Source of the DNA: Faecousia sp.
GTDB taxonomy: Bacteria > Bacillota > Clostridia > Oscillospirales > Oscillospiraceae
NCBI GenBank assembly: GCA_045651005.1
Contig: JAZRRS010000006.1
Coordinates: 84,366-148,365 of the forward strand
Reading direction: 5' to 3'
DNA length: 64,000 nt
Numbering within the stretch: the stretch's first letter is position 1; each line of letters starts with the position of its first letter. Position numbers and translations under genes: made by a program. The notes beneath the pieces were generated by a model, which did no database searches, was not told the DNA's origin, and saw only the letters and a program-made list of their open reading frames with translations. Of the stretch, positions 35,934 to 46,623 are shown one piece after another.

Positions 35934-36947
35934 TTATATTTTATCGCGAATCTGTTTCCACAGATTTTCAAAGTATTGAGCAAAGCCTTCATCATTTGGA
36001 TGACAGCCGTAGTCGGCAAAATACGACACGTCGTGGGGCACAAGAGAAAAGCCTTCCACAAGCACCGTATCGGGTCGTGAGGACGCAGCCTTTCGAATTG
36101 CATTTGACACCTCTTCCATAGAAGAGAAGTCTGTTTCCGCATTGAGGTTGCTGCGCCAAATAGGCGTGATCACAATGGTTTTGACATCAGGATACGCTTC
36201 ATTCAAAGCATCAAAGAAGCCTTTCACATCTGCAAAGAACGCTTCCCGTGGATGCTTGCGCCAGTCGTTGGTACCATAAGCAACCACAATATAGTCCGGA
36301 ACAAAAGCATCCCGCAAGGATGGCAGTTCCGGCCAAAAGAATTCGCCACCAATGCCTTTGTTAAATTCCTCCGCACCCAAAGCATCAGAAAGACGAGCAA
36401 TGTAGCGGGAAGATGGATGCATCGAAGCATTCCCGTATGTAATGGAATCTCCCAAAGCCAGAAGTTTCCGGTTCGGTTTTACCGGCACAAGCGTTGCACC
36501 GTCATCCAGTGTAATTTCCTGAAGGTAAGGAAACGCATTCCACGGCAGGTGCACTGTGACCTCTTTCTCCCCACGACCAAGATTGAAGCTGCCGGAAAAC
36601 TCTCCAATAGGGAACTCCAATTTCATATATCGTCTGGGCAGTTCCAAGCCCTCAAAGTTGTTCAAAGAACCAATCATCTTTCCATCAACAAACACATCAA
36701 ATGCCATAAAACTGGCACCGATGTGATCATTTACCAAAAAGCGAAGAAACAGATTGCCGCTGTCCGTTCGAAAACGAAGCTTCACACCGGAGGTAGTCTT
36801 GCTCTTTTTAAAGAACGTTTCAGACCGCTTCTCATAAGCAGCAAGCTGTTCCTGCGTAAAACGGTAAAACTGAACACCTTCTGCCTCCTGTACTACAGAT
36901 ACTGCACCTGTGGTAATCGACTTTATCTGTTGAAGATCCAATTTCAT
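35934..36947 (-). CDS. SGNH/GDSL hydrolase (esterase)
   Basis: GDSITYG, NKGIGG, YGTND, DYGCHPNDEG. Confidence 0.9.
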   Translation of the reverse strand: MKLDLQQIKSITTGAVSVVQEAEGVQFYRFTQEQLAAYEKRSETFFKKSKTTSGVKLRFRTDSGNLFLRFLVNDHIGASFMAFDVFVDGKMIGSLNNFEGLELPRRYMKLEFPIGEFSGSFNLGRGEKEVTVHLPWNAFPYLQEITLDDGATLVPVKPNRKLLALGDSITYGNASMHPSSRYIARLSDALGAEEFNKGIGGEFFWPELPSLRDAFVPDYIVVAYGTNDWRKHPREAFFADVKGFFDALNEAYPDVKTIVITPIWRSNLNAETDFSSMEEVSNAIRKAASSRPDTVLVEGFSLVPHDVSYFADYGCHPNDEGFAQYFENLWKQIRDKI

Positions 36948-37315
36948 ATATAAATCCCCTATTTCTAAGTGCATAAAATGGCGTTTCACGCAAACCTCTT
37001 GCAGTAATTATATCAACATCACGATACTAATTCAATATAAATATAACGCACATACATCAAAAGAAGCTGAATGTTTTGTGTATATCTGTAAATTAACTGT
37101 AAACATCATTTCTTTCAGCTTCCTTTAAGCTAGAAGTCATATTATAATAACCATCACTATGAATAACAAAGGAGAAGTTACCAATGTGCTAATTTCTTCC
37201 ACATCCGGTTTTGGCGGAAGCCGCAGACCGACAATCAAAAACCAATAAGATTGAGAATTTACCAGAAGTCAATGTAAATTCACTTACGTATTTATACAGT
37301 TTCTATCGACTAACG

Positions 37316-37355
37316 AAAAATGCACCCAATCTAACTTAGATTGGGTGCGTTTTTC
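37316..37355. terminator. Bidirectional terminator
   Basis: GAAAAATGCACCCAATCTAA/TTAGATTGGGTGCGTTTTTC. Confidence 0.85.
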
Positions 37356-37441: not shown

Positions 37442-40084
37442 TCATTCAACCAAACCATATTTGACCTTGATTCGATCAAGTTTTTCCAGCATTGGTTCGG
37501 CGGCAACGAGGAGGAAGATCACTGTGGCGGCTGCGTGAACTAAGTCCATAGGCAAACCGGACACATAGTAGGCCATAATCACTTCCCAGTTAAGATTTTG
37601 GGAACTGTACATCAGCGCCGAGGCCGGATTCATAATGCCGCCGTAGATGATAACAGCCGCAAATGCGCCAAAGGTTGCAAGACTGCCACGGCTACGACAA
37701 AGCAGACCTTTACGGAACAGAATGCCAGACAAGAAACCGATAATGCCCATGCTGAACATCTGCCATGGTGTCCACGGACCTTGGGAAAACAGCACATTGG
37801 ATGCAAGCATCGTAACAGCACCTACCAGGAAGCCGCTCTCTCCGCCAAAGGCCACACCGGCGATAATCACCAATGCCATCACCGGTTTGAACTGGGGCAG
37901 CATGAAGAACGCAGACCGTCCGGCTACACCGATGGCGCACAAAACCGCGATCACCACCAGTTCTCTTGCCTTGGGTTTTCGACTCTCGAACACCAAGAAG
38001 AAAGGTAGCATACATTCCGCCAACACCAAAAGGGCAGTAATGTTATAGTGCTGGTTTCCCAAGTACATTATTCCAGCAAATATCGTCACCGGAATACACA
38101 GCACGATCATCACAGCCGCCACCAGGGTGCGTTTACTCAACTTTCGCTGCTTGACCGGGGTTTGCAGCATAGCCGCCGGAGCGCTTCTTCGTCCAATGGA
38201 TGCGATAAAGCCACCCAAAGCCACGATCAGCACCACATATAATTTCAGCTGATCCGCACCGGAAGCGGTCAGACCATCCTTTGTGATCACAGCGGACAGA
38301 TCGGTCATACCGGCAGCACAGAAAAACACCCATAAAGCAATCAGCAGACACACGCCAGCCAGTAGCTTTCTCCACAATGGTAGCGGCTTTGGCTTGAAAT
38401 TTGCAGCTGTTTTCTTCACTGCAGGCAAAGGTGCCGCTTCTGGAATTGACCGTTCTGTAGGTAGTTCTCCGCCACAGCAACCGATGATGTCAGCAACTGT
38501 CACAGCCTGATGAATCAAATGACGAGCCATACGGTTGGCAGGTGTGGTATAGAAGCTATTGCCGGAGAAAAACTCCCGGGGCGCATCCTCTGCCACAATG
38601 CCGCCATCAAAGAACAAGCCGCATTTATGAGCATACTCAGCGCAGAAAGGCACGTCGTGGCTTACCATCAAAATTGTGGTGCCTTGGGCAACCAATCTGC
38701 GAAGGATCAGGGCAAAGGTCACCTTAAACTCTGCGTCAAAACCCTTGGTAGGCTCGTCCAACAAAAGAATATCCGGTGCAGTTAGAAGCACCTTTGCCAA
38801 AGCGGTACGCTGTTGCTCACCACCGGAAATGTCATAGGGATGGCGGTCAAGAAATTCTCGCAGACCGCACAGTTCCACGATTCGGGCAACCTCTGCATCC
38901 TGCTGCTCCTTGGGAATCTTCTCACCACGGAACACCTCATACAGATCTTCACGGACAGTTCTTTTGATAAATAAGGTTTGGGGATTCTGCGGCAAGTGTC
39001 CCAGCTTACCTTGCAGTCGCACATCACCCCGATAGGCAAAGCACAAACCAGAGATTACTTTTAAAGTAGTGGACTTGCCGGCACCGTTGCCGCCCAGGAT
39101 GGCATAGAACTCGCCCTTGCGAAGTTTCAAAGAAAAGCCTTTGACTACGTCCGGGGAGTCTTTCTCATAGCGGAACCACAGATTCTCACATTCCAAGGCT
39201 GTTTCTTCCGGATATGTCGGGGGATCTTTTTCTGTCAGAGGTAGCAATGCTTCCTCTTCTACTCGCTGAGAGAGAAAGCTACTACCATCACGGACGGTCA
39301 TAGGACAATCCAGCTTCGTTTCCACCGCTGCCCAAACTCGCATAGCGGTGGGCATAGCAAGGAACATTCCACTGCCCTTATCCTTAAGTTGCAGACCTAC
39401 ATTCTCCGGCTTGTCATCGCAGACGATCGCACCTTCGTCCATCACAATGACGCGGGTAGCAAAAGGAAAAGCTTCCTCCAAACGATGCTCCGTCAGGATA
39501 ATGGTTGTACCCAGTTCCCGGTTCATCTTGCCCAACAGCGCTAAAAAGTCAGCGGCGGCAATGGGGTCAAGCTGTGCGGTAGGCTCATCCAGCACAAGCA
39601 CACCCGGTTGCATAGCCATCACGGAAGCAAGGCTCAAAAGCTGCTTCTGTCCACCGGACAGTTCAGTAATATCCTTATAAAACCAGTTCTCAATGCCAAA
39701 GAAGGCCGCAATTTCCGCCACACGGCGTCGAATGGTAGGTGTATCGTCCCCCAAGCTTTCCAAACCAAAGGCCAACTCGTGCCACACCTTGTCGGTGACC
39801 ACTTGATTCTCCGGGGATTGCAGCACATAGCCGATTCTTTCTGCCTGCTCCCTTTGGGAGAGTTCGGACAAGAGTGTGCCTTGATAGCGGATCTCACCGG
39901 AGAATAAGCCGTGGGGTGTCAAGCAGGATTTCAAGTGTCGCAGAAGTGTAGATTTACCGCAGCCGGAAGGACCACAAAGAATCACAAACTCGCCTTGCCG
40001 AACCGTAAAGGATATATGGGAAAGGGCCTTCTTTTCGCCCTCCGGGTATGTAAAATCTACATTTTTGAATGAATAGCTTTCCAT
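37442..40084 (-). CDS. ECF transporter fusion: duplicated ATPase (A-A') plus a C-terminal CbrT-like S component
   Basis: Two Walker A motifs (GPSGCGKS, GGNGAGKS), LSGGQ/ISGGE, two DEPT motifs; C-terminal ARELVVIAVLCAIGVAGR...FKPV...GPWTPWQM S-component signature. Confidence 0.9.
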   Translation of the reverse strand: MESYSFKNVDFTYPEGEKKALSHISFTVRQGEFVILCGPSGCGKSTLLRHLKSCLTPHGLFSGEIRYQGTLLSELSQREQAERIGYVLQSPENQVVTDKVWHELAFGLESLGDDTPTIRRRVAEIAAFFGIENWFYKDITELSGGQKQLLSLASVMAMQPGVLVLDEPTAQLDPIAAADFLALLGKMNRELGTTIILTEHRLEEAFPFATRVIVMDEGAIVCDDKPENVGLQLKDKGSGMFLAMPTAMRVWAAVETKLDCPMTVRDGSSFLSQRVEEEALLPLTEKDPPTYPEETALECENLWFRYEKDSPDVVKGFSLKLRKGEFYAILGGNGAGKSTTLKVISGLCFAYRGDVRLQGKLGHLPQNPQTLFIKRTVREDLYEVFRGEKIPKEQQDAEVARIVELCGLREFLDRHPYDISGGEQQRTALAKVLLTAPDILLLDEPTKGFDAEFKVTFALILRRLVAQGTTILMVSHDVPFCAEYAHKCGLFFDGGIVAEDAPREFFSGNSFYTTPANRMARHLIHQAVTVADIIGCCGGELPTERSIPEAAPLPAVKKTAANFKPKPLPLWRKLLAGVCLLIALWVFFCAAGMTDLSAVITKDGLTASGADQLKLYVVLIVALGGFIASIGRRSAPAAMLQTPVKQRKLSKRTLVAAVMIVLCIPVTIFAGIMYLGNQHYNITALLVLAECMLPFFLVFESRKPKARELVVIAVLCAIGVAGRSAFFMLPQFKPVMALVIIAGVAFGGESGFLVGAVTMLASNVLFSQGPWTPWQMFSMGIIGFLSGILFRKGLLCRSRGSLATFGAFAAVIIYGGIMNPASALMYSSQNLNWEVIMAYYVSGLPMDLVHAAATVIFLLVAAEPMLEKLDRIKVKYGLVE

Positions 40085-40947
40085 TTTCTCTCCTCTGCCC
40101 AGTTCAGCACTACGGGCATCAAACCAAGAATCAAATACACAAACTGAAAAGAAAGGGTCACGGCATTCAAACCGATATAGCGGATACTGGGAAAATACCG
40201 GAAGCCGAAGGCAGAAACCATGCTGCCTGTCAGCAGGTAAAAACCGCAGAAACCTAAATAGAGCAATGCCATTTTATCCCGATCATCAAAGCGGTAAATG
40301 GAGAAGACCGTGCGTCCCTTCAGACCATAGCCACGGCTTTTCATACTGTCGGCGGTCTCGATGGCATTTTCCAGCGCCCAAGTGACCATAATGGACAGTA
40401 CCGTAATAGCAACCTTTGTGCGGTGCCAGGCAGACCCTTCCGAAATATCTCTGCCGATGCTTTTTTGTGCATCGGTAACCGCTTGCAGCTGCGTTCTGAA
40501 TTTGGGAATAAAACGCAAGGTCATACTCAGCACCAGTGACATTGCGGGAATGATGCGGCCAAACAGATAAATAAACTTATCCGATGTGATCACCCTGTTG
40601 AAATTTTTGAACCACAGTAGCACGGTAGCCAGCATCGTACCTGCGGATAGTCCGTACAGGAGGCTCTCCAATGTCAGCGGATTACCGCTTGGAAAATACA
40701 TCAGGATCGTCATACCCTCATGGCTGAATGCCGGGTTAATAAATGCCGTCAGCAAAAAAATCGGCAAACACCATTTTAAGCTAAAGAGCGCCGCCTTTGT
40801 TCCCTCCGTCTGCACCGCATAAGTAAGCGCACAAACAAAGGATATGCCCTGTGTCAAAGGGTGATTCAGCGCCATAGAAAAGCCGATCACCAAGGTAAAA
40901 TATAGAAAGTTTACCAAGGGATGGTATTTAGCAAAACGATCTAGCAT
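40057..40947 (-). CDS. ECF transporter transmembrane T component
   Basis: YHPLVNFLYF, SMTLRFIP, ADSMKSRGYG. Confidence 0.9.
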   Translation of the reverse strand: MLDRFAKYHPLVNFLYFTLVIGFSMALNHPLTQGISFVCALTYAVQTEGTKAALFSLKWCLPIFLLTAFINPAFSHEGMTILMYFPSGNPLTLESLLYGLSAGTMLATVLLWFKNFNRVITSDKFIYLFGRIIPAMSLVLSMTLRFIPKFRTQLQAVTDAQKSIGRDISEGSAWHRTKVAITVLSIMVTWALENAIETADSMKSRGYGLKGRTVFSIYRFDDRDKMALLYLGFCGFYLLTGSMVSAFGFRYFPSIRYIGLNAVTLSFQFVYLILGLMPVVLNWAEERKWKAIHSKM

Positions 40948-40948
40948 T

Positions 40949-42058
40949 TTAACCTCCGACGGCATAACTACCGCCTACATCATTACCCAAGTCGCAGGTG
41001 TAGCGCCACTCTACCACATCGCCATCTTTCATCTGATAACGGGAACTACCATAATTGGGATACCAGCCATTGACCTTGTACATCCAGCCGGACAGTGCGC
41101 CGCAATCAAACTCATAGAGATTATGGATGCCTTCCACATAAGCACTGTTGTAAATGGGTGTCCACTCCGCTTCCATATGGATACCCTTTTCCTTGCAGAC
41201 CCGCTGCAGTACATCGAATACGGACTCACCCTCATAGAAGGTCACCGTAGTTTTTTTCAGAATCGCACCACCGGAGGGAACGCATTCCAGTTTTTCGGGA
41301 TCCAGCATATCCAAATTGTTCAGAATGGTGGAACACTCGATGGAGAAAGTACAAGTATAGCTTTTTGCCTTGTTCACTTCTGCATCTTCCGGTTCCACCG
41401 GCTTTGGTTTGCCTTCCGGGACGGGATCGGTATTATACTTGTCTTTACCGTCATTTTGGCCCGGTTTAGAGAGATATTCATCCTGTCCACCCACGAGAGC
41501 AGTTGGTGTTTGATTGGATTGTGTTTCTTCTGTCCCGGTTATTTCTTCTTCATCCTCCAGATTTTTGTCCGGGCGAATCTCTAATCCATCCATAGAACCA
41601 TCCAAAATAAGATTCAAAATGGTTGTTTTGCTGCCGGTAATAGAAACCGAAGCAAAAGCGTTCTTGCCTACATACGCAGTTGCACTCTGGGCGTTCCATT
41701 GCTCATCCAGATATATGGACAGCAACGCAGAAAAGCCAAAGGCTCTTACTTGCCGCAGATTCACTTGTATGCTGCCTTCGTCTGTCTTGCGCAAGGTTAC
41801 ATCCAGATTGATTTCCGTTGGATCAGTAATATCACTACCAAAAATCGTCCACTCATAGCGCAAACCATTGGATGCCCCGGTAAATACCCCAATAGTATTT
41901 TCGTTTTTAATTTGCTTGATAATGCTTTCTTTTATAATGCCATCTTCCGGGATCTCAATAGGATCATTCAGGTTTACACTGCCGAAGTTTCCTTGGCATG
42001 CGCATAAGGACATCATTATTGTAAAAGCCAGCAATATGCTCAGTATTTTCTTCATCAT
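40949..42058 (-). CDS. Lipoprotein with C-terminal DUF4430 (transcobalamin beta-like) domain
   Basis: Lipobox LCAC; SVFDVL...AYVEGIHNLYEFDCGALSGWMYKVNGWYPNYG...DGDVVEWRYT. Confidence 0.88.
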   Translation of the reverse strand: MMKKILSILLAFTIMMSLCACQGNFGSVNLNDPIEIPEDGIIKESIIKQIKNENTIGVFTGASNGLRYEWTIFGSDITDPTEINLDVTLRKTDEGSIQVNLRQVRAFGFSALLSIYLDEQWNAQSATAYVGKNAFASVSITGSKTTILNLILDGSMDGLEIRPDKNLEDEEEITGTEETQSNQTPTALVGGQDEYLSKPGQNDGKDKYNTDPVPEGKPKPVEPEDAEVNKAKSYTCTFSIECSTILNNLDMLDPEKLECVPSGGAILKKTTVTFYEGESVFDVLQRVCKEKGIHMEAEWTPIYNSAYVEGIHNLYEFDCGALSGWMYKVNGWYPNYGSSRYQMKDGDVVEWRYTCDLGNDVGGSYAVGG

Positions 42059-42666
42059 TATTCTCCAATCACCAGTCTGCCGTTTTTCACTTTCAGGTTA
42101 AGCGTGGTCATAGCAAGACTTTGGGTTTCATGGGATGCAGCAAACACGGCATCTTCAACAATCAAATCCAGCACATCGCCAGAACGAACACTACCACGAA
42201 GTCTGAATTTTAGCCGCAGTACCACATTATAGTCATCAGCCAAAAATTCTCTGGTAAATGCATTTTTCCCACCGGTCATATCCAAATACATAATGTTGAT
42301 AAGCCCGGTATCGTTGCTGTTTTGTATATTGCAGCTCCAATCCGGCAACTGCTGACCGTTACTGTTTTCGTCACTCAAAATAAAGATGTTGCCTTCTTCT
42401 ACTCCCAGAAATTCCAACCGGGAGGAGTCAAAGGCAATGCTCATACTCATAGCGGGATAACGAGCATCTCCTAAAGAAGAAATGGTAACATCCAAAGTAA
42501 ATTCATCTGTTTGACTCGCAGAAAGTTTTTGAGGTGTTTCCACAATCAAGGTAGGCTCACTTACAGTAGACTCACCGCCACACTGCACCAAGAGCCAGAC
42601 AATTGATGCAATCAAGACACAACCGCCTACAATCCATAGCCATCTATTTTTAAGAAACTTTTTCAT
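42058..42666 (-). CDS. N-terminally membrane-anchored cohesin-domain protein
   Basis: Signal-anchor WLWIVGGCVLIASIVWLLV; FTLDVTI...MSIAFDSSRLEFLGVEEG...GLINIMY...VLRLKFRL matches the cohesin strand pattern. Confidence 0.72.
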   Translation of the reverse strand: MKKFLKNRWLWIVGGCVLIASIVWLLVQCGGESTVSEPTLIVETPQKLSASQTDEFTLDVTISSLGDARYPAMSMSIAFDSSRLEFLGVEEGNIFILSDENSNGQQLPDWSCNIQNSNDTGLINIMYLDMTGGKNAFTREFLADDYNVVLRLKFRLRGSVRSGDVLDLIVEDAVFAASHETQSLAMTTLNLKVKNGRLVIGE

Positions 42667-42683
42667 AGAAACACTCCTCAAAG

Positions 42684-42706
42684 TGGGCGGGGATAAACCC
42701 CGCCCA
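42684..42706 (-). promoter_or_regulatory. GC-rich intra-operon stem-loop
   Basis: TGGGCGGGG-ATAAA-CCCCGCCCA between the large gene and the cohesin gene; only a weak T-tract. Confidence 0.6.
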
Positions 42707-42713
42707 TATGTTT

Positions 42714-45584
42714 TTAGGGATTGGTCGTAATGGTTGCGGCCTTGGTCACAACACCAAAGTCACTACCATCTACAAACTTTTCTACGATGCCCAGTGCATC
42801 GAAGGTGTTAATACGGCTGTCACCGTTGACATTTATGGTGAGAATCTGATCATCGGTAGGTTCATCGCCCTTGCGAAGCCATGCATCCACAGCATTCAAG
42901 GCATCCTGCGCATTCACAACACCGTCACCGTTGGTATCGCCGAACATAATATTGGTTGCAGCATCCTCAGTAAAGGTGAAATTCAGTTTATTCACGAACT
43001 GCTCCATAGCGATAGATGTATCCACCAATGCCACATAGGTTGCAATGCCGGTCTTTGCAGAGATTTCGGCGCTGTACTTAAAGACATACTGATTGGTACC
43101 GTCGTTGTATGTCAGCTTGGTAGCATTTTCGATGCCTACTACAGACACAGCAACTGCTTTCTTCGTGGCGGGAATCAGGTCAATATCATCACCGGTGTAC
43201 AGACAGATTGAACTGTAAGAAATACCCTTTACTACGTTGACAGTGTCTGCGGCAGTTGTAGTATCAACGACCACCATTGCATTTTCATCGCCAGGATTGG
43301 AAGTGCACTTCACGGACATACCGCCAATACTGATTACCTTCTGCTCACCTGCGTTTGCGGCATCCACCCGGAAAGTGACGGTGAAGAACTGCGCGGGGAA
43401 TGCGTTGCCCTCTGCGTTGCCAACAACAGTAATGTCACTGTGCTCATTGGCATCGAAATATACCACTCGGAGCTTGCCATCTGCATCCAAATGATAGCTG
43501 ACCTTGCCACCGTTTAACCGGCTGCCGGCGGTCACATCGGTAACACGCAAGCCTTCAGGAACATTCAGAATAAAGTCAATGAGCTTATAGCCTGCAGCGT
43601 TATCCCACTGATCCAGGGTGATCACAGCATTGAAAGTTTTGCCCACATCGTCGGTAATCTGGGTAGGCAGTCCCAACGTCGCGGTAGGCTTACCCTGAAC
43701 AATCGTGTCCTCTTCGGCAGTCACATCGGAGTAGTCATACAGAGAAGGCTTACCCTTTACCAGACGGTCGTAGGCAACGAGACCATAAGTAGCCTGATCG
43801 GTAGCCATAGCATTGGCGCCAGCGCCTCTGCCGTGTTCAAACTTAGCCTCATCTTCCAGGTAATAGGTCAGCAGATTGTCGATGGCGGAATTGCCGTTTT
43901 TGATGAAACGGGGGTCGGTATCCGGATTGATGCCCCAAGTGGTAGCCGCAACGATGGCCCACACACAGCTTTCGGAGGTTTCGCCCCTGCCATAGGGGAA
44001 ACCGCCGTTGTCCAGCTGGCTCTCAGACAGCCATGTAAAAGCTGCTTCGCAAGCCGCTGCAACCGCAGGCTGCTCCCGGTAGGGGTACAGTGCGGTCAAG
44101 GTCATACCGGTGATATCCACATTGGAAGGCTGGGCCTTGGCGGTGACCAGAGACCAGCCACCATCATTGTGCTGGGCAGCTACAATGGCATCCACGCACT
44201 GCTGCCGGATGGTGGGGTCGCTGGTCTCATAGCCGCCGCAATCCATGGCGATCAGTGTCCAGATCGTACCGTTCATCCCTTGTTTGCGGATCCAGTTGAT
44301 GCCGTTGGCGCTGTAAGCTTCCACCAAGTCCCAGTTGCCAACAGAGGTAGCATCCTTGCCGATGGCAGCAAGCGCCATAACGAGGCGAGAGTTGTCGGTG
44401 GATTTGTTGCTGTCCAATGCGCCGCTCTTATTGACTTCAGCGGCGGTGGTGTTGACATACTCTACGATGCGCTCGTAGTAGTCAGCAAAATACTGGCTGT
44501 CGTTTGCATAGTAGCCACCACGGGCCAGACCGAACACGGTCCACTCACCGTAGTTGGTGCCGAAGGAAGGCTCAGCAACGGTAGTTGCCTGCATGGCCAG
44601 CGTTGCATTCAGAACAGCAGAAACATCCTGCGGCTGACGGGGCGTTTCGGGAGCGGCTGCTCCGGCAACGGTTACCTTTGCAAAAGCAGGAGAGGAAACG
44701 ATGCAAGGCTCACCGGTTTCAAGGAAATGATCGCAGGTGGTATGGGTAAAACCGTCGTCAATACCCATGCCGCCGTCACACCAAATATAATAAGTACCGG
44801 CATTGGGAAAAGTAATCTGGGCATTGCCGCTTTCGTCGGTGGTCACAGAGCCTTCTGCAACACCAAAGCTACTGCCGTAATAGACCTCAAAATATTCTGC
44901 ATCCTTGACCCAAGCTTCACCAAACATCAGATCGCAAAAGGAATGCTTCAGCTTAATGTCGAGAGCCTCACCTGCATTGGCGGCATAATCGTGGGTGTAG
45001 TTATCATTTGCATCAGCAAACAAATGGAAACCTCCTGCCTGATCCCACAGGAAGTTATAGCAGCTGAAACTTGCCACATCCAGGAAGTCACCGACTTCCA
45101 GCACGATTCTGTCGGAGGTAGCGCCAACGGTCATATAGTCGCTCTGCTGGCTCTCATCTACAGGAAAATCGCCGTTGTGGAAGTACACTAGATTTTCGGT
45201 AAAGCCAAAGATACCCCCCTTGAAATAGGAACTACCGGGCAGAGCATCAAAGTTGACCTCACCCCAATCGCCACCGTAGAGTTCTTCATGGGCATAAATC
45301 AGAAGCTGCAGTGCGGTGGTTTCATATTCGCCGTCGCCATCTGCGTCATAAAGCATATTGTCCAGACCATACTCGGTCAGGTCGATGCCTTCAATCTTGG
45401 ACATTGGGACAGGAACATAGGCAATGGGATTGCCGTCTTTGTCGTCAATATAAGTGCTGTCAAAGCTGATGGACAGATAGATAACATCTTCCTGTGTACC
45501 TGTTGCAAAGGCAGTTACAGGCAACAGACCCAACACCATCACAACGGTGAGGATTATGCTCAAGATTTTCTTCGTAATTTTCAT
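42714..45584 (-). CDS. Secreted modular protein: DUF4430-like N-domain, prenyltransferase/squalene-cyclase-repeat alpha/alpha barrel (transcobalamin-alpha-like), cohesin-like domain, C-terminal dockerin
   Basis: Signal peptide ending AFA; QHNDGGW, QLDNGGF, VDITGM, MATDQA repeats; cohesin-like GKTFNAVITL...GKLRVVYF...FFTVTFRV; dockerin GDTNGDGVVNAQDA...NVNGDSRINTFDA. Confidence 0.82.
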   Translation of the reverse strand: MKITKKILSIILTVVMVLGLLPVTAFATGTQEDVIYLSISFDSTYIDDKDGNPIAYVPVPMSKIEGIDLTEYGLDNMLYDADGDGEYETTALQLLIYAHEELYGGDWGEVNFDALPGSSYFKGGIFGFTENLVYFHNGDFPVDESQQSDYMTVGATSDRIVLEVGDFLDVASFSCYNFLWDQAGGFHLFADANDNYTHDYAANAGEALDIKLKHSFCDLMFGEAWVKDAEYFEVYYGSSFGVAEGSVTTDESGNAQITFPNAGTYYIWCDGGMGIDDGFTHTTCDHFLETGEPCIVSSPAFAKVTVAGAAAPETPRQPQDVSAVLNATLAMQATTVAEPSFGTNYGEWTVFGLARGGYYANDSQYFADYYERIVEYVNTTAAEVNKSGALDSNKSTDNSRLVMALAAIGKDATSVGNWDLVEAYSANGINWIRKQGMNGTIWTLIAMDCGGYETSDPTIRQQCVDAIVAAQHNDGGWSLVTAKAQPSNVDITGMTLTALYPYREQPAVAAACEAAFTWLSESQLDNGGFPYGRGETSESCVWAIVAATTWGINPDTDPRFIKNGNSAIDNLLTYYLEDEAKFEHGRGAGANAMATDQATYGLVAYDRLVKGKPSLYDYSDVTAEEDTIVQGKPTATLGLPTQITDDVGKTFNAVITLDQWDNAAGYKLIDFILNVPEGLRVTDVTAGSRLNGGKVSYHLDADGKLRVVYFDANEHSDITVVGNAEGNAFPAQFFTVTFRVDAANAGEQKVISIGGMSVKCTSNPGDENAMVVVDTTTAADTVNVVKGISYSSICLYTGDDIDLIPATKKAVAVSVVGIENATKLTYNDGTNQYVFKYSAEISAKTGIATYVALVDTSIAMEQFVNKLNFTFTEDAATNIMFGDTNGDGVVNAQDALNAVDAWLRKGDEPTDDQILTINVNGDSRINTFDALGIVEKFVDGSDFGVVTKAATITTNP

Positions 45585-45826
45585 TCAAAATTCGTCCTTT
45601 CTGATTTGTTCGGGGCGTCGTGGGTGCCGCCCCCTGCAGTTTTTTCCTTGGGTTGTTTCAGTCCTGCGGACTCCAATGCGCGAGGCCAGGTTCCAAGATA
45701 AGCCTTAATTTGGGAGCAGGTTGCACTATCGAAGTCTTTCTTTGTAGGGAGTCTCCCCAGTTCCTGGCACTTGCATCGCAAAAGGTCCTCCGCCCAGGCC
45801 TTTTTCTCTTCGGGTGTCACTTGCAT
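45581..45826 (-). CDS. Small protein resembling the homing-endonuclease-associated repeat
   Basis: ELGRLPTKKDF...IKAYLGTWPRALESAGL; AAAGGAGG RBS; ATGA overlap with the next gene. Confidence 0.7.
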   Translation of the reverse strand: MQVTPEEKKAWAEDLLRCKCQELGRLPTKKDFDSATCSQIKAYLGTWPRALESAGLKQPKEKTAGGGTHDAPNKSERTNFE

Positions 45827-45859
45827 CCCTCCTTTGCTGGTTTGTAGCTTATCCGCAAA

Positions 45860-45907
45860 CAAAAAATGCAACCTATTTATCCTCAAGTACGGATAAATTA
45901 GGCTGCA
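45860..45907 (-). terminator. Attenuator terminator of the proximal riboswitch
   Basis: Minus strand TGCAGCCTAATTTATCC...GGATAAATAGGTTGCA-TTTTTT. Confidence 0.75.
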
Positions 45908-45934
45908 CTCTCCTGTCAAAGCGTGATAAACCCA

Positions 45935-46030
45935 AACGATAGGTTAGGCTCTCTGACTTATGGCGATGCCAAATACAGCAATGGACGGTTGTTCCGGTTT
46001 CTCACCGGATCACCTAAACCTATCGTATCA
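45935..46030 (-). promoter_or_regulatory. Compact cobalamin riboswitch (proximal)
   Basis: CGATAGGTT/AACCTATCG closing stem; CCGGTGAGAAACCGG, CATTGCTGTA and AAGTCAG B12-box elements; lacks the long peripheral extension. Confidence 0.72.
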
Positions 46031-46050
46031 GTAATATTCAGTTGGCATGC

Positions 46051-46096
46051 AGAAAAAGCAAAAAGCAGCAGCAACCCTATACTGGGCCGCTGCAGC
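46051..46096 (-). terminator. Attenuator terminator of the distal riboswitch
   Basis: Minus strand GCAGCGGCCC...GGGTTGCTGC followed by TGCTTTTTGCTTTTT. Confidence 0.7.
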
Positions 46097-46151
46097 CGGT
46101 TTTCCGCAACAAAAAATCACAGGCTCCGTACTTGCAGACCCTAGTGTTTTC

Positions 46152-46338
46152 CCTCATTTAAGCAGTTCTTCTGACTTACGCATCCTAAGCTCCACACAGC
46201 CTTCTCAGTTTTCCCCAATGACCGACTTTCGTCAAGTGTGTGCCTCCACGCATACAGCGGCGGTACCGTCCGGGAATCTCACCCGGTTTTCTATTCTCTT
46301 GCAGTGCTGTTACCACATCTGCAAGCACTTAAACGGAA
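46152..46338 (-). promoter_or_regulatory. Full-length cobalamin (AdoCbl-type) riboswitch (distal)
   Basis: AATAGAAAACCGGGTGAGATTCCCGGACGGTACCGCCGCTGTA...GTCATTGGGGAAAACTGAGAAGGC...TAAGTCAGAAGAACTGC. Confidence 0.9.
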
Positions 46339-46355
46339 TATTTACTTTGAAAACC

Positions 46356-46384
46356 AGTATACACGATTGTCCAGCAAATGTCAA
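46356..46384 (-). promoter_or_regulatory. sigmaA promoter of the B12 operon
   Basis: TTGACA-N17-TATACT directly upstream of the distal riboswitch. Confidence 0.8.
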
Positions 46385-46531: not shown

Positions 46532-46623
46532 TGGCGGAGTGAGAGGGATTTGAACCCTCGCGCGCTGTTTAGACGCCTACTCCCTTAGCAGGGGAGCCCC
46601 TTCGGCCTCTTGGGTATCACTCC
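46532..46623 (-). tRNA. tRNA-Ser(GCT)
   Basis: GGAGTGATACCCAAGAGGCCGAAGGGGCTCCCCTGCTAAGGGAGTAGG...GGTTCAAATCCCTCTCACTCCGCCA; long variable arm. Confidence 0.96.

Follow-up and report, generated by a model that had tools for sequence, protein, structure and literature searches.

We report an operon on the minus strand of a 64,000-nucleotide stretch of DNA from Faecousia sp. (GenBank assembly GCA_045651005.1, contig JAZRRS010000006.1, positions 84,366 to 148,365 of the forward strand). This whole stretch is referred to as "the window" in this study, and all coordinates given without a locus label are positions within it. The operon, located between positions 37442 and 46384, probably encodes a dedicated corrinoid importer of the ECF-CbrT type (ECF, energy-coupling factor) that is repressed by vitamin B12 (cobalamin) and is equipped with two extracytoplasmic accessory binders, a reading to which we assign a probability of roughly 0.65. 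One of the two putative binders is a secreted protein of 956 residues, which would be held at the membrane by a cohesin-dockerin pair, and the other is a lipoprotein with a DUF4430 domain.

The transcription unit is tightly packed, with six open reading frames (ORFs) that overlap or lie no more than 47 nucleotides apart. In the order of transcription, they encode an 81-residue protein with an HNH_repeat motif (45581-45826), the secreted 956-residue protein, which is the predicted capture protein (42714-45584), a 202-residue type II membrane protein (42058-42666), a 369-residue lipoprotein (40949-42058), EcfT, the transmembrane coupling subunit of the CbiQ family (40057-40965), and an 880-residue EcfA-EcfA'-S fusion with a CbrT-like S part (37442-40084). 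The unit is flanked by a sigma-70-like promoter and a terminator, both on the minus strand. The promoter (46356-46384; TTGACA, a spacer of 17 nucleotides, and TATACT) was assigned by its consensus match alone (11/12) and lies directly 5' of a cobalamin riboswitch; the terminator-like hairpin at the operon end (37322-37348) has a 12-pair stem followed by a T-run. The initial annotation of this DNA had listed cobalamin riboswitches, a C-terminal duplicated Ca-loop dockerin, a membrane-anchored cohesin-like protein, a DUF4430 lipoprotein, EcfT and an A-A'-S fusion, and had remarked that no glycoside hydrolase is present. Pfam and Rfam place all of these elements on the minus strand just where they had been reported, and no glycoside hydrolase or other carbohydrate-active family is among the Pfam matches of the operon proteins at E values up to 0.01.

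Regulation by B12 is suggested by the leader RNA. The full-length aptamer at 46144-46347 (minus strand) belongs to the cobalamin riboswitch family (RF00174, clan CL00101), as it fits the full model at 80.4 bits (gathering score 31.5, E = 3e-18) and is followed by a terminator, namely a hairpin with a 10-pair stem, 7 of the pairs being GC, and a T-run (46068-46093, minus strand), which would form the expression platform and is conserved in alignment A9. Further downstream lies a compact second cobalamin-type aptamer (approximately 45925-46040, minus strand) with a score of 26.7 bits against the AdoCbl model RF01482, which is below the gathering score of 50. Behind it, a second terminator-like hairpin with a T-run (45861-45910, minus strand), unlisted by the terminator pattern scan, was seen directly in the sequence and is likewise conserved in A9. 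The second aptamer is kept in eight relatives, where compensatory changes are seen in 12 of its 30 predicted pairs, and it is absent in two others (L013 and L016; loci are denoted by L and a number). An Rfam search at E values up to 0.1 over nine relatives' loci did not list it. With one aptamer scoring far above the cut-off and the other showing covariation while remaining below it, the plural "riboswitches" of the initial annotation holds. Among the relatives, a riboswitch precedes the operon in all eight close loci holding upstream DNA, and likewise in L023, L036 and L038, the last of which has two full aptamers; upstream of the operon in L040, no riboswitch reaches the gathering score. From this arrangement, we infer that expression of the operon would be repressed by B12.

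To judge from homology, the last two genes supply all parts of an ECF transporter with a CbrT-type S component: EcfT (Pfam CbiQ, 29.9 bits versus a cut-off of 25), two EcfA ATPase domains (two ABC_tran matches) and an S part homologous to CbrT (residues 705-858 of the fusion, matching the Pfam families ECF_trnsprt and ECF-ribofla_trS). The sole PDB match of the S part is 6fnp_A, which is the CbrT of ECF-CbrT (E = 1.6e-10). In four of the relatives' loci (L036, L038, L041 and L042), S is encoded by a separate gene, and in some others it is fused. ECF-CbrT takes up cobalamin and cobinamide, and substrate binding is attributed to its S component, without any external helper (PMC5997447). That the operon encodes a B12-regulated ECF importer is very probable in our estimate.

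The lipoprotein carries a conserved cysteine after its signal helix and a C-terminal DUF4430 domain (63.4 bits). This domain is the most conserved piece of the system, with a mean column identity of 81% across relatives whose large proteins are 39-90% identical. It is preceded by an N-terminal domain (residues 24-165; 41564-41989, minus strand), which is conserved in the relatives and fits no Pfam family (lowest E value 0.2), and the two are joined by an acidic, proline-rich linker.

The 956-residue protein, for which 1205 close and 5156 representative relatives were found, begins with a signal peptide (residues 1-29). Its AlphaFold2 model, built with a 56-row alignment, has a mean predicted local distance difference test score (pLDDT) of 89.6 and divides into successive modules, all encoded on the minus strand. 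These are a transcobalamin-beta-like SLBB (DUF4430-like) domain (residues 30-180; 45045-45497), an Ig-like beta-sandwich resembling GH9 N-terminal Ig-like and PKD-type domains at Z-scores of 7-8 (residues 185-310; 44655-45032), an (alpha/alpha)6 toroid (residues 314-625; 43710-44645), an internal cohesin-like beta-sandwich (residues 634-785; 43230-43685), a mixed alpha/beta spacer or "X" module with a confident fold in the model (residues 789-875; 42960-43220), and a dockerin with two Ca-loop/helix repeats (residues 880-950; 42735-42947).

When residues 30-312 were refolded alone, the model reached a pLDDT of 93.2 and a predicted template modelling score (pTM) of 0.90, and it was compared exhaustively with 48,161 solved chains. 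The best match of the N-terminal domain is the beta domain of haptocorrin (4kkj; Z = 8.2, 95 residues aligned, root-mean-square deviation (rmsd) 3.3), followed by bovine transcobalamin (2bb6; Z = 7.7), human intrinsic factor (2pmv; 7.6), the DUF4430 protein 3u7z (7.5) and the beta domain of human transcobalamin (5no0; 7.3). MoaD and other generic beta-grasp proteins, at about 6, fall below these transcobalamin-type matches. In the distant relatives, a Pfam-detectable DUF4430 domain occupies the same position, and a language-model lead that starts from the N-terminal domain arrives at DUF4430 clusters. Foldseek with the N-terminal model returned weak, scattered matches only (Zcp, Nir2, cadherins). 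The Z-scores are middling and the agreement of the five matches is striking; the model thus points to a beta-grasp domain of the transcobalamin-like SLBB clade.

For the toroid, the (alpha/alpha)6 fold proposed earlier is confirmed by structural matches to squalene cyclase (Z = 22.8), intrinsic factor (18.1), transcobalamin (17.9) and haptocorrin (17.6), while a specific kinship of the modelled domain with the corrinoid-binding alpha domain of the latter proteins is not established. The Pfam family Prenyltrans matches it at 21 bits, below the cut-off, and its profile finds squalene-cyclase-type repeats in the PDB (E = 1e-13) and no corrinoid binder by sequence. Among the relatives, toroids are found fused to DUF4430 and to SLH anchors. 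As a transcobalamin-beta-like domain forms the N-terminal part of the 956-residue protein, a single chain would contain both halves of a binder of the transcobalamin type. Taking the folds, the riboswitch control and the operon context together, we modestly favour the view that this protein binds corrinoids.

The tether is predicted from the two neighbouring genes. In the 202-residue protein, a basic N-terminus and a single hydrophobic helix are followed by a linker of about 10-15 residues and one cohesin domain (Pfam Cohesin, PF00963, residues 52-168), which scores 27 bits versus a cut-off of 24.1, and 27.4 bits in a search of the genome. PF00963 is found on nearly all of 120 anchor homologues among the matches listed. 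A profile of this family retrieves only cohesins from the PDB (5nrm and 5nrk at E = 9e-4, with more cohesins just below), and the single sequence retrieved no PDB match. No lipobox or cleavage motif is common to its relatives; the protein was therefore taken to be a type II membrane protein, with its cohesin near the outer face of the membrane. On the partner side, the dockerin scores 25.3 bits against Dockerin_1 (PF00404, residues 882-931; cut-off 22.9; 29.6 bits in the genome search), its best sequence matches are PDB dockerins, and 19 relatives keep both Ca loops (D-x-N-x-D-G...D and N-x-N-x-D...D) nearly unchanged.

The multimer modelling that the initial annotation had proposed was carried out with the cohesin ectodomain and the dockerin, from alignments of 19 rows and with two Ca ions included. 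The interface score ipSAE was 0.90 (0.90, 0.91 and 0.88 in the separate runs), compared with 0.21 for the best of three controls; the runs agreed in at least 97% of the contacts, and the partner had a pLDDT of at least 75. In addition, the residues of the predicted interface are more conserved than the rest, both in the cohesin (0.80 versus 0.69, permutation p = 0.0035) and in the dockerin (0.86 versus 0.65, p = 0.0001, a figure inflated by the Ca-ligand residues). The models support binding, and a cohesin-dockerin tether appears likely. The initial annotation had the large protein tethered to the cell surface. The predicted anchorage stands, but a distal position at the cell surface does not, as the short linker would place the tether directly outside the membrane, on its outer face. 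Suggestive in this context is P0393 (411 residues), known as one sequence only, from the assembly of a public read set, which combines a transmembrane helix, a cohesin of this family (61% identical) and a C-terminal DUF4430 domain; it has neither the signal nor the N-terminal domain of the lipoprotein, and a search for longer fused cohesin forms gave this sequence only. P0393 could be a true fusion, or an assembly or deletion product.

Faecousia belongs to the Oscillospiraceae in the class Clostridia (NCBI taxonomy), and the nearest relatives of the system come from metagenome-assembled genomes of human and animal gut origin that carry the labels Faecousia, Vescimonas, Acutalibacteraceae and Oscillospiraceae. 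The order of the six genes is unchanged in all loci that are long enough to show it, with large proteins down to about 64% identity. Seven dockerin-bearing representatives with 37-50% identity to the large protein served as a distant sample. In all seven, a gene for a cohesin or cohesin-like protein of about 200-240 residues is nearby (adjoining in six), and DUF4430, EcfT and EcfA-A' genes are present. As the layout recurs in more than 20 related loci and in 7/7 of these distant relatives, it is not due to chance. The survey suggested in the initial annotation thus came out as expected, as DUF4430 and ECF genes accompany those for the cohesin and the dockerin, and B12 riboswitches do so in most of the loci holding upstream DNA. 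In a collection of metagenome proteins, the anchor cohesin family forms 2528 clusters at 90% identity. Among species genomes, it was found (at E = 1e-10) in 12 of 150 others of the genus, in 1 of 200 sampled from the family and in 0 of 398 sampled from the class. These are samples in which many genomes are incomplete, and in them the system is patchy.

These results suggest the following mechanism. When B12 is scarce, the tandem riboswitch-terminators would permit read-through into the operon. EcfT and the EcfA-A'-S fusion would then form an ATP-driven importer, with the S part as the CbrT-type corrinoid-binding subunit. The secreted 956-residue protein would act as a catcher, most likely binding the corrinoid between or on its SLBB domain and toroid, and its C-terminal dockerin would plug into the single cohesin of the 202-residue neighbour, which an uncleaved N-terminal helix would hold on the outer face of the cytoplasmic membrane. 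Such a tether, if physically formed, would keep the catcher beside the transporter, beneath or within the cell wall. The lipid-tethered DUF4430 lipoprotein would be a second corrinoid binder that probably hands its ligand to the S component. The corrinoid of the catcher would be passed to the S part either directly or via the lipoprotein, and imported with ATP. The order of this relay is proposed tentatively, at somewhat less than even odds.

In one distant relative (L041:8001-13570), two dockerin proteins of 982 and 606 residues with near-identical dockerin ends precede a single cohesin gene, with the ECF genes upstream; one type of anchor may therefore serve several cargoes there. A more elaborate arrangement can also be imagined, in which a modular relay leads from the catcher through the DUF4430 lipoprotein to CbrT, and the internal cohesin-like module stacks further dockerin proteins, either copies of the same protein or paralogues of the L041 type, into a multi-copy, exchangeable "corrinosome" reaching from the membrane into the wall. 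We consider this unlikely.

Several points weigh against an importer with two accessory binders. ECF S components normally bind their substrates unaided, and no ECF transporter is known to us to require a binding protein outside the cytoplasm; the accessory proteins may therefore not feed the transporter at all. The Z-scores of 7-8 obtained with the N-terminal domain of the large protein lie in a range that can reflect a common fold only, and the profile-profile comparison of this domain with DUF4430 was weak (38% probability) and was not used as support. At E values up to 0.01, no operon protein matches the Pfam family of eukaryotic cobalamin-binding proteins. The 956-residue protein was therefore not filed as a member of that family, and the resemblance is one of domain content only. 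The complex model may reflect memory of solved members of the cohesin-dockerin family rather than this particular pair, and the calibration of the ipSAE mark, which was reached by 58 of 80 solved complexes and by 2 of 110 mismatched pairs, covers neither the use of our own alignments nor a riding Ca ligand. The closest structures to the toroid, and its sole sequence-level PDB matches, are squalene cyclases. This last point leads to a different view of the large protein, in which it would be an enzyme or adhesin on a tether, its toroid being of a terpene-cyclase-like or thioester-domain-like kind; it might, for example, release or modify corrinoids or act on host material, and B12 would be handled by the lipoprotein and CbrT only. 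Squalene-hopene cyclases are indeed its top matches by structure and by profile, complement C3 and alpha-2-macroglobulin, in which a toroid likewise occurs together with beta-sandwiches, head the Foldseek list for the whole protein, and a minimal riboswitch locus in the same genome (L048, described below) has just a small lipoprotein and an S component. However, kinship with C3 and alpha-2-macroglobulin was rejected, as these matches have TM-scores of at most 0.21 and rmsd values of 34-50 Å and come from shared domain types. Moreover, the structures closest to the N-terminal domain are beta domains that bind B12 (those of haptocorrin, transcobalamin and intrinsic factor), and an SLBB domain combined with a toroid is precisely what makes up transcobalamin. 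Fusions of the toroid to DUF4430 occur among the relatives, and in most of the relatives checked the large protein is controlled by a B12 riboswitch. An enzyme or adhesin is thus rather improbable.

The large protein's own cohesin-like module could be the partner of the dockerin instead of the anchor, either as a clasp in cis or by forming head-to-tail chains in trans, with the membrane cohesin seeding the chain or serving another ligand. In Foldseek, this module resembles solved cohesins (2xdh, TMt 0.74; 2vo8, 0.76), hhalign relates it to the anchor cohesin family (94% probability, E = 1e-7), and a cohesin together with a dockerin in one protein is the layout of an adaptor scaffoldin. Its best-conserved residues (D41, R77, Y80 and K130 of alignment A7) lie in strands that align with the predicted dockerin-binding strands of the anchor, which hints, at the level of sequence, at a binding face, possibly for another partner. 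On the other hand, the interface motifs of the anchor family are missing from it (YPAxS, MYLD and DAVFAAS are replaced by YKLxD, VYFD and GMSxK), the Pfam Cohesin model does not detect it, and all loci examined retain the anchor cohesin as a gene of its own, which makes this alternative improbable. Finally, the cohesin and the dockerin might not pair at all, in which case the large protein would be released as a soluble "corrinophore" or would bind some other component of the cell or matrix, and the small cohesin protein would have an unrelated role. The tether is predicted from a model whose high score can come from likeness to solved complexes, and the very short linker between helix and cohesin could hinder the docking of a 100-kDa protein. 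Nevertheless, the two genes remain near each other at identities from 90% to as low as 37%, and are adjacent in all loci but L041, the predicted interface is the better conserved part of both modules, and the other dockerin of the genome likewise has its own neighbouring cohesin. We regard the lack of pairing as very improbable, and docking of the 956-residue protein on the membrane cohesin remains our preferred reading.

The genome, which is 77% complete, contains two dockerins and two Pfam-detectable cohesins in all. A cellulosome is recognised by a multi-cohesin scaffoldin that gathers dockerin-bearing carbohydrate-active enzymes, and this genome does not present one. The other dockerin (L035:6682-14088) ends a 2052-residue BspA-type leucine-rich repeat protein, and the product of the gene directly after it runs from a signal peptide through a cohesin and two cadherin-like domains to a C-terminal membrane helix; this locus has no riboswitch. 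It is probably a second private cohesin-dockerin pair, anchoring an adhesin, and this organism seems to be in the habit of encoding a private cohesin anchor beside a dockerin-bearing cargo. At another locus (L048:508-1718), a second RF00174 riboswitch (69 bits) precedes the genes for a 126-residue lipoprotein, whose DUF4430 match (18.2 bits) is sub-threshold, and for a CbrT-like S component standing alone (6fnp_A, E = 7e-10). The two resemble a minimal pair for B12 uptake that would have to borrow an ECF module, and they suggest that a DUF4430 lipoprotein with CbrT is the minimal unit, to which the dockerin protein has been added along with its anchor. Neither CbiC nor CobS was found in the genome, and one protein with a B12-binding domain is present; both fit a B12 scavenger, although in a genome of this completeness the absence of biosynthesis genes is weak evidence.

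Some further features of the region were observed. The first gene of the operon encodes a cytoplasmic-looking protein with a homing-endonuclease-associated repeat (Pfam PF18780, 41.5 bits), and its stop codon overlaps the start of the gene for the 956-residue protein (ATGA). This 81-residue ORF is kept in most close relatives, and a DUF2292 ORF of 48-50 residues takes its place in L036 and L040. Within the 47-nucleotide gap between the genes for the large protein and the cohesin protein lies a GC-rich hairpin (42683-42707; 10 pairs, 8 of them GC), which, on the mRNA, could stabilise the upstream message or damp read-through and thereby affect the ratio of cargo to anchor. A long-arm tRNA gene (46535-46623, minus strand) is located just upstream of the operon promoter and flanks the operon also in L004, L007 and L023. 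Downstream of the operon terminator, a gene for a GDSL-type lipase/acylhydrolase (35934-36989, minus strand) is not conserved with the operon.

Competition for B12 and other corrinoids shapes gut communities. To our knowledge, extracellular capture of these compounds is understood only for Bacteroides (BtuG/BtuH) and for animals (the transcobalamin family), and for Gram-positive gut Clostridia we know of no characterised part other than the membrane transporter. If the proposed reading is correct, the operon would fill in the capture layer that is still missing from the picture of a group of abundant, uncultured Oscillospiraceae and related bacteria, and would give a first concrete function to the long-predicted transcobalamin-like proteins of bacteria. 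It would also represent an ECF importer with accessory substrate binders, none of which is described in the literature searched, and a natural use of cohesin-dockerin pairing outside polysaccharide degradation, where a private one-to-one pair could serve as an orthogonal protein tether.

The system shares features with several known ones. Mammalian transcobalamin, intrinsic factor and haptocorrin (2bb6, 2pmv and 4kkj) are built from the same two folds as the 956-residue protein. In the latter, however, the SLBB domain comes first (the reverse order), an Ig-like domain lies between the two, cohesin-like, X and dockerin modules are added, and the identity is 6-16%. BtuG is reportedly a surface lipoprotein for B12 capture in Bacteroides. 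The likeness to BtuG and BtuH (PMC8941943 for BtuH), which act with BtuB, is a functional analogy only: it consists of riboswitch-controlled corrinoid capture outside a membrane transporter in the competitive gut, whereas the Bacteroides proteins have unrelated folds, belong to a Gram-negative outer membrane with a TonB-dependent transporter, and involve no cohesin or dockerin.

Anchoring scaffoldins use SLH domains or sortase signals, whereas the anchor here is an N-terminal membrane helix, its cargo is a putative vitamin binder, and the genes are part of a transporter operon. Otherwise, the predicted arrangement is that of known cohesin-dockerin systems, both cellulosomal (the anchoring scaffoldins of Acetivibrio thermocellus) and non-cellulosomal (GH84C/GH33 of Clostridium perfringens, 2w1n and 2vo8; Archaeoglobus fulgidus, 2xdh), in that a C-terminal Ca-loop dockerin after a spacer docks on the single cohesin of a cell-bound anchor. 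The 956-residue protein also resembles adaptor scaffoldins in combining a cohesin-like module with a dockerin, and the non-cellulosomal cohesins of C. perfringens enzymes and of Archaeoglobus are among the structural matches. In contrast to a cellulosome, there are no glycoside hydrolases in the operon and no multi-cohesin scaffoldin, and the genome has two dockerins. Non-cellulosomal cohesin-dockerin proteins have been reported as adhesins in methane-oxidising consortia.

The ECF-CbrT transporter of Lactobacillus delbrueckii (PDB 6FNP; Santos et al. 2018, PMC5997447) has a CbrT homologous to the S part described here and likewise consists of EcfT and two ABC ATPase domains, and cobalamin and cobinamide are thus the substrates to be expected. 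In the Faecousia operon, the A, A' and S parts are joined in one 880-residue chain, the genes form a dedicated operon behind tandem B12 riboswitches, and two extracytoplasmic accessory proteins and a cohesin anchor are added. The closest precedent for the accessory proteins is a prediction made in 2007 by Burroughs, Balaji, Iyer and Aravind, according to which toroid/SLBB proteins secreted by bacteria and encoded alongside CbiO-/CbiQ-like genes scavenge B12 in organisms without B12 biosynthesis, often with a second paralogous SLBB protein and possibly in surface complexes (PMC1796856). No biochemically characterised member of that group was found in the literature searched. Both systems combine a toroid and SLBB with CbiO/CbiQ-type genes, but the 2007 proteins carry LPXTG-type anchors and Ig, FIVAR and other modules, and the text of that paper mentions no cohesin, dockerin or riboswitch (PMC1796856). 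The initial annotation had stated that it knew of no characterised system with this layout; none was found in the literature searched, but the idea of B12 scavenging by toroid/SLBB proteins was already present in that prediction. In the literature searched, no paper connects B12 uptake or an ECF transporter with a cohesin-dockerin pair, and a survey of rumen dockerins (PMC6487960) does not contain this layout. Within that literature, what is new is the cohesin-dockerin tether on an ECF importer.

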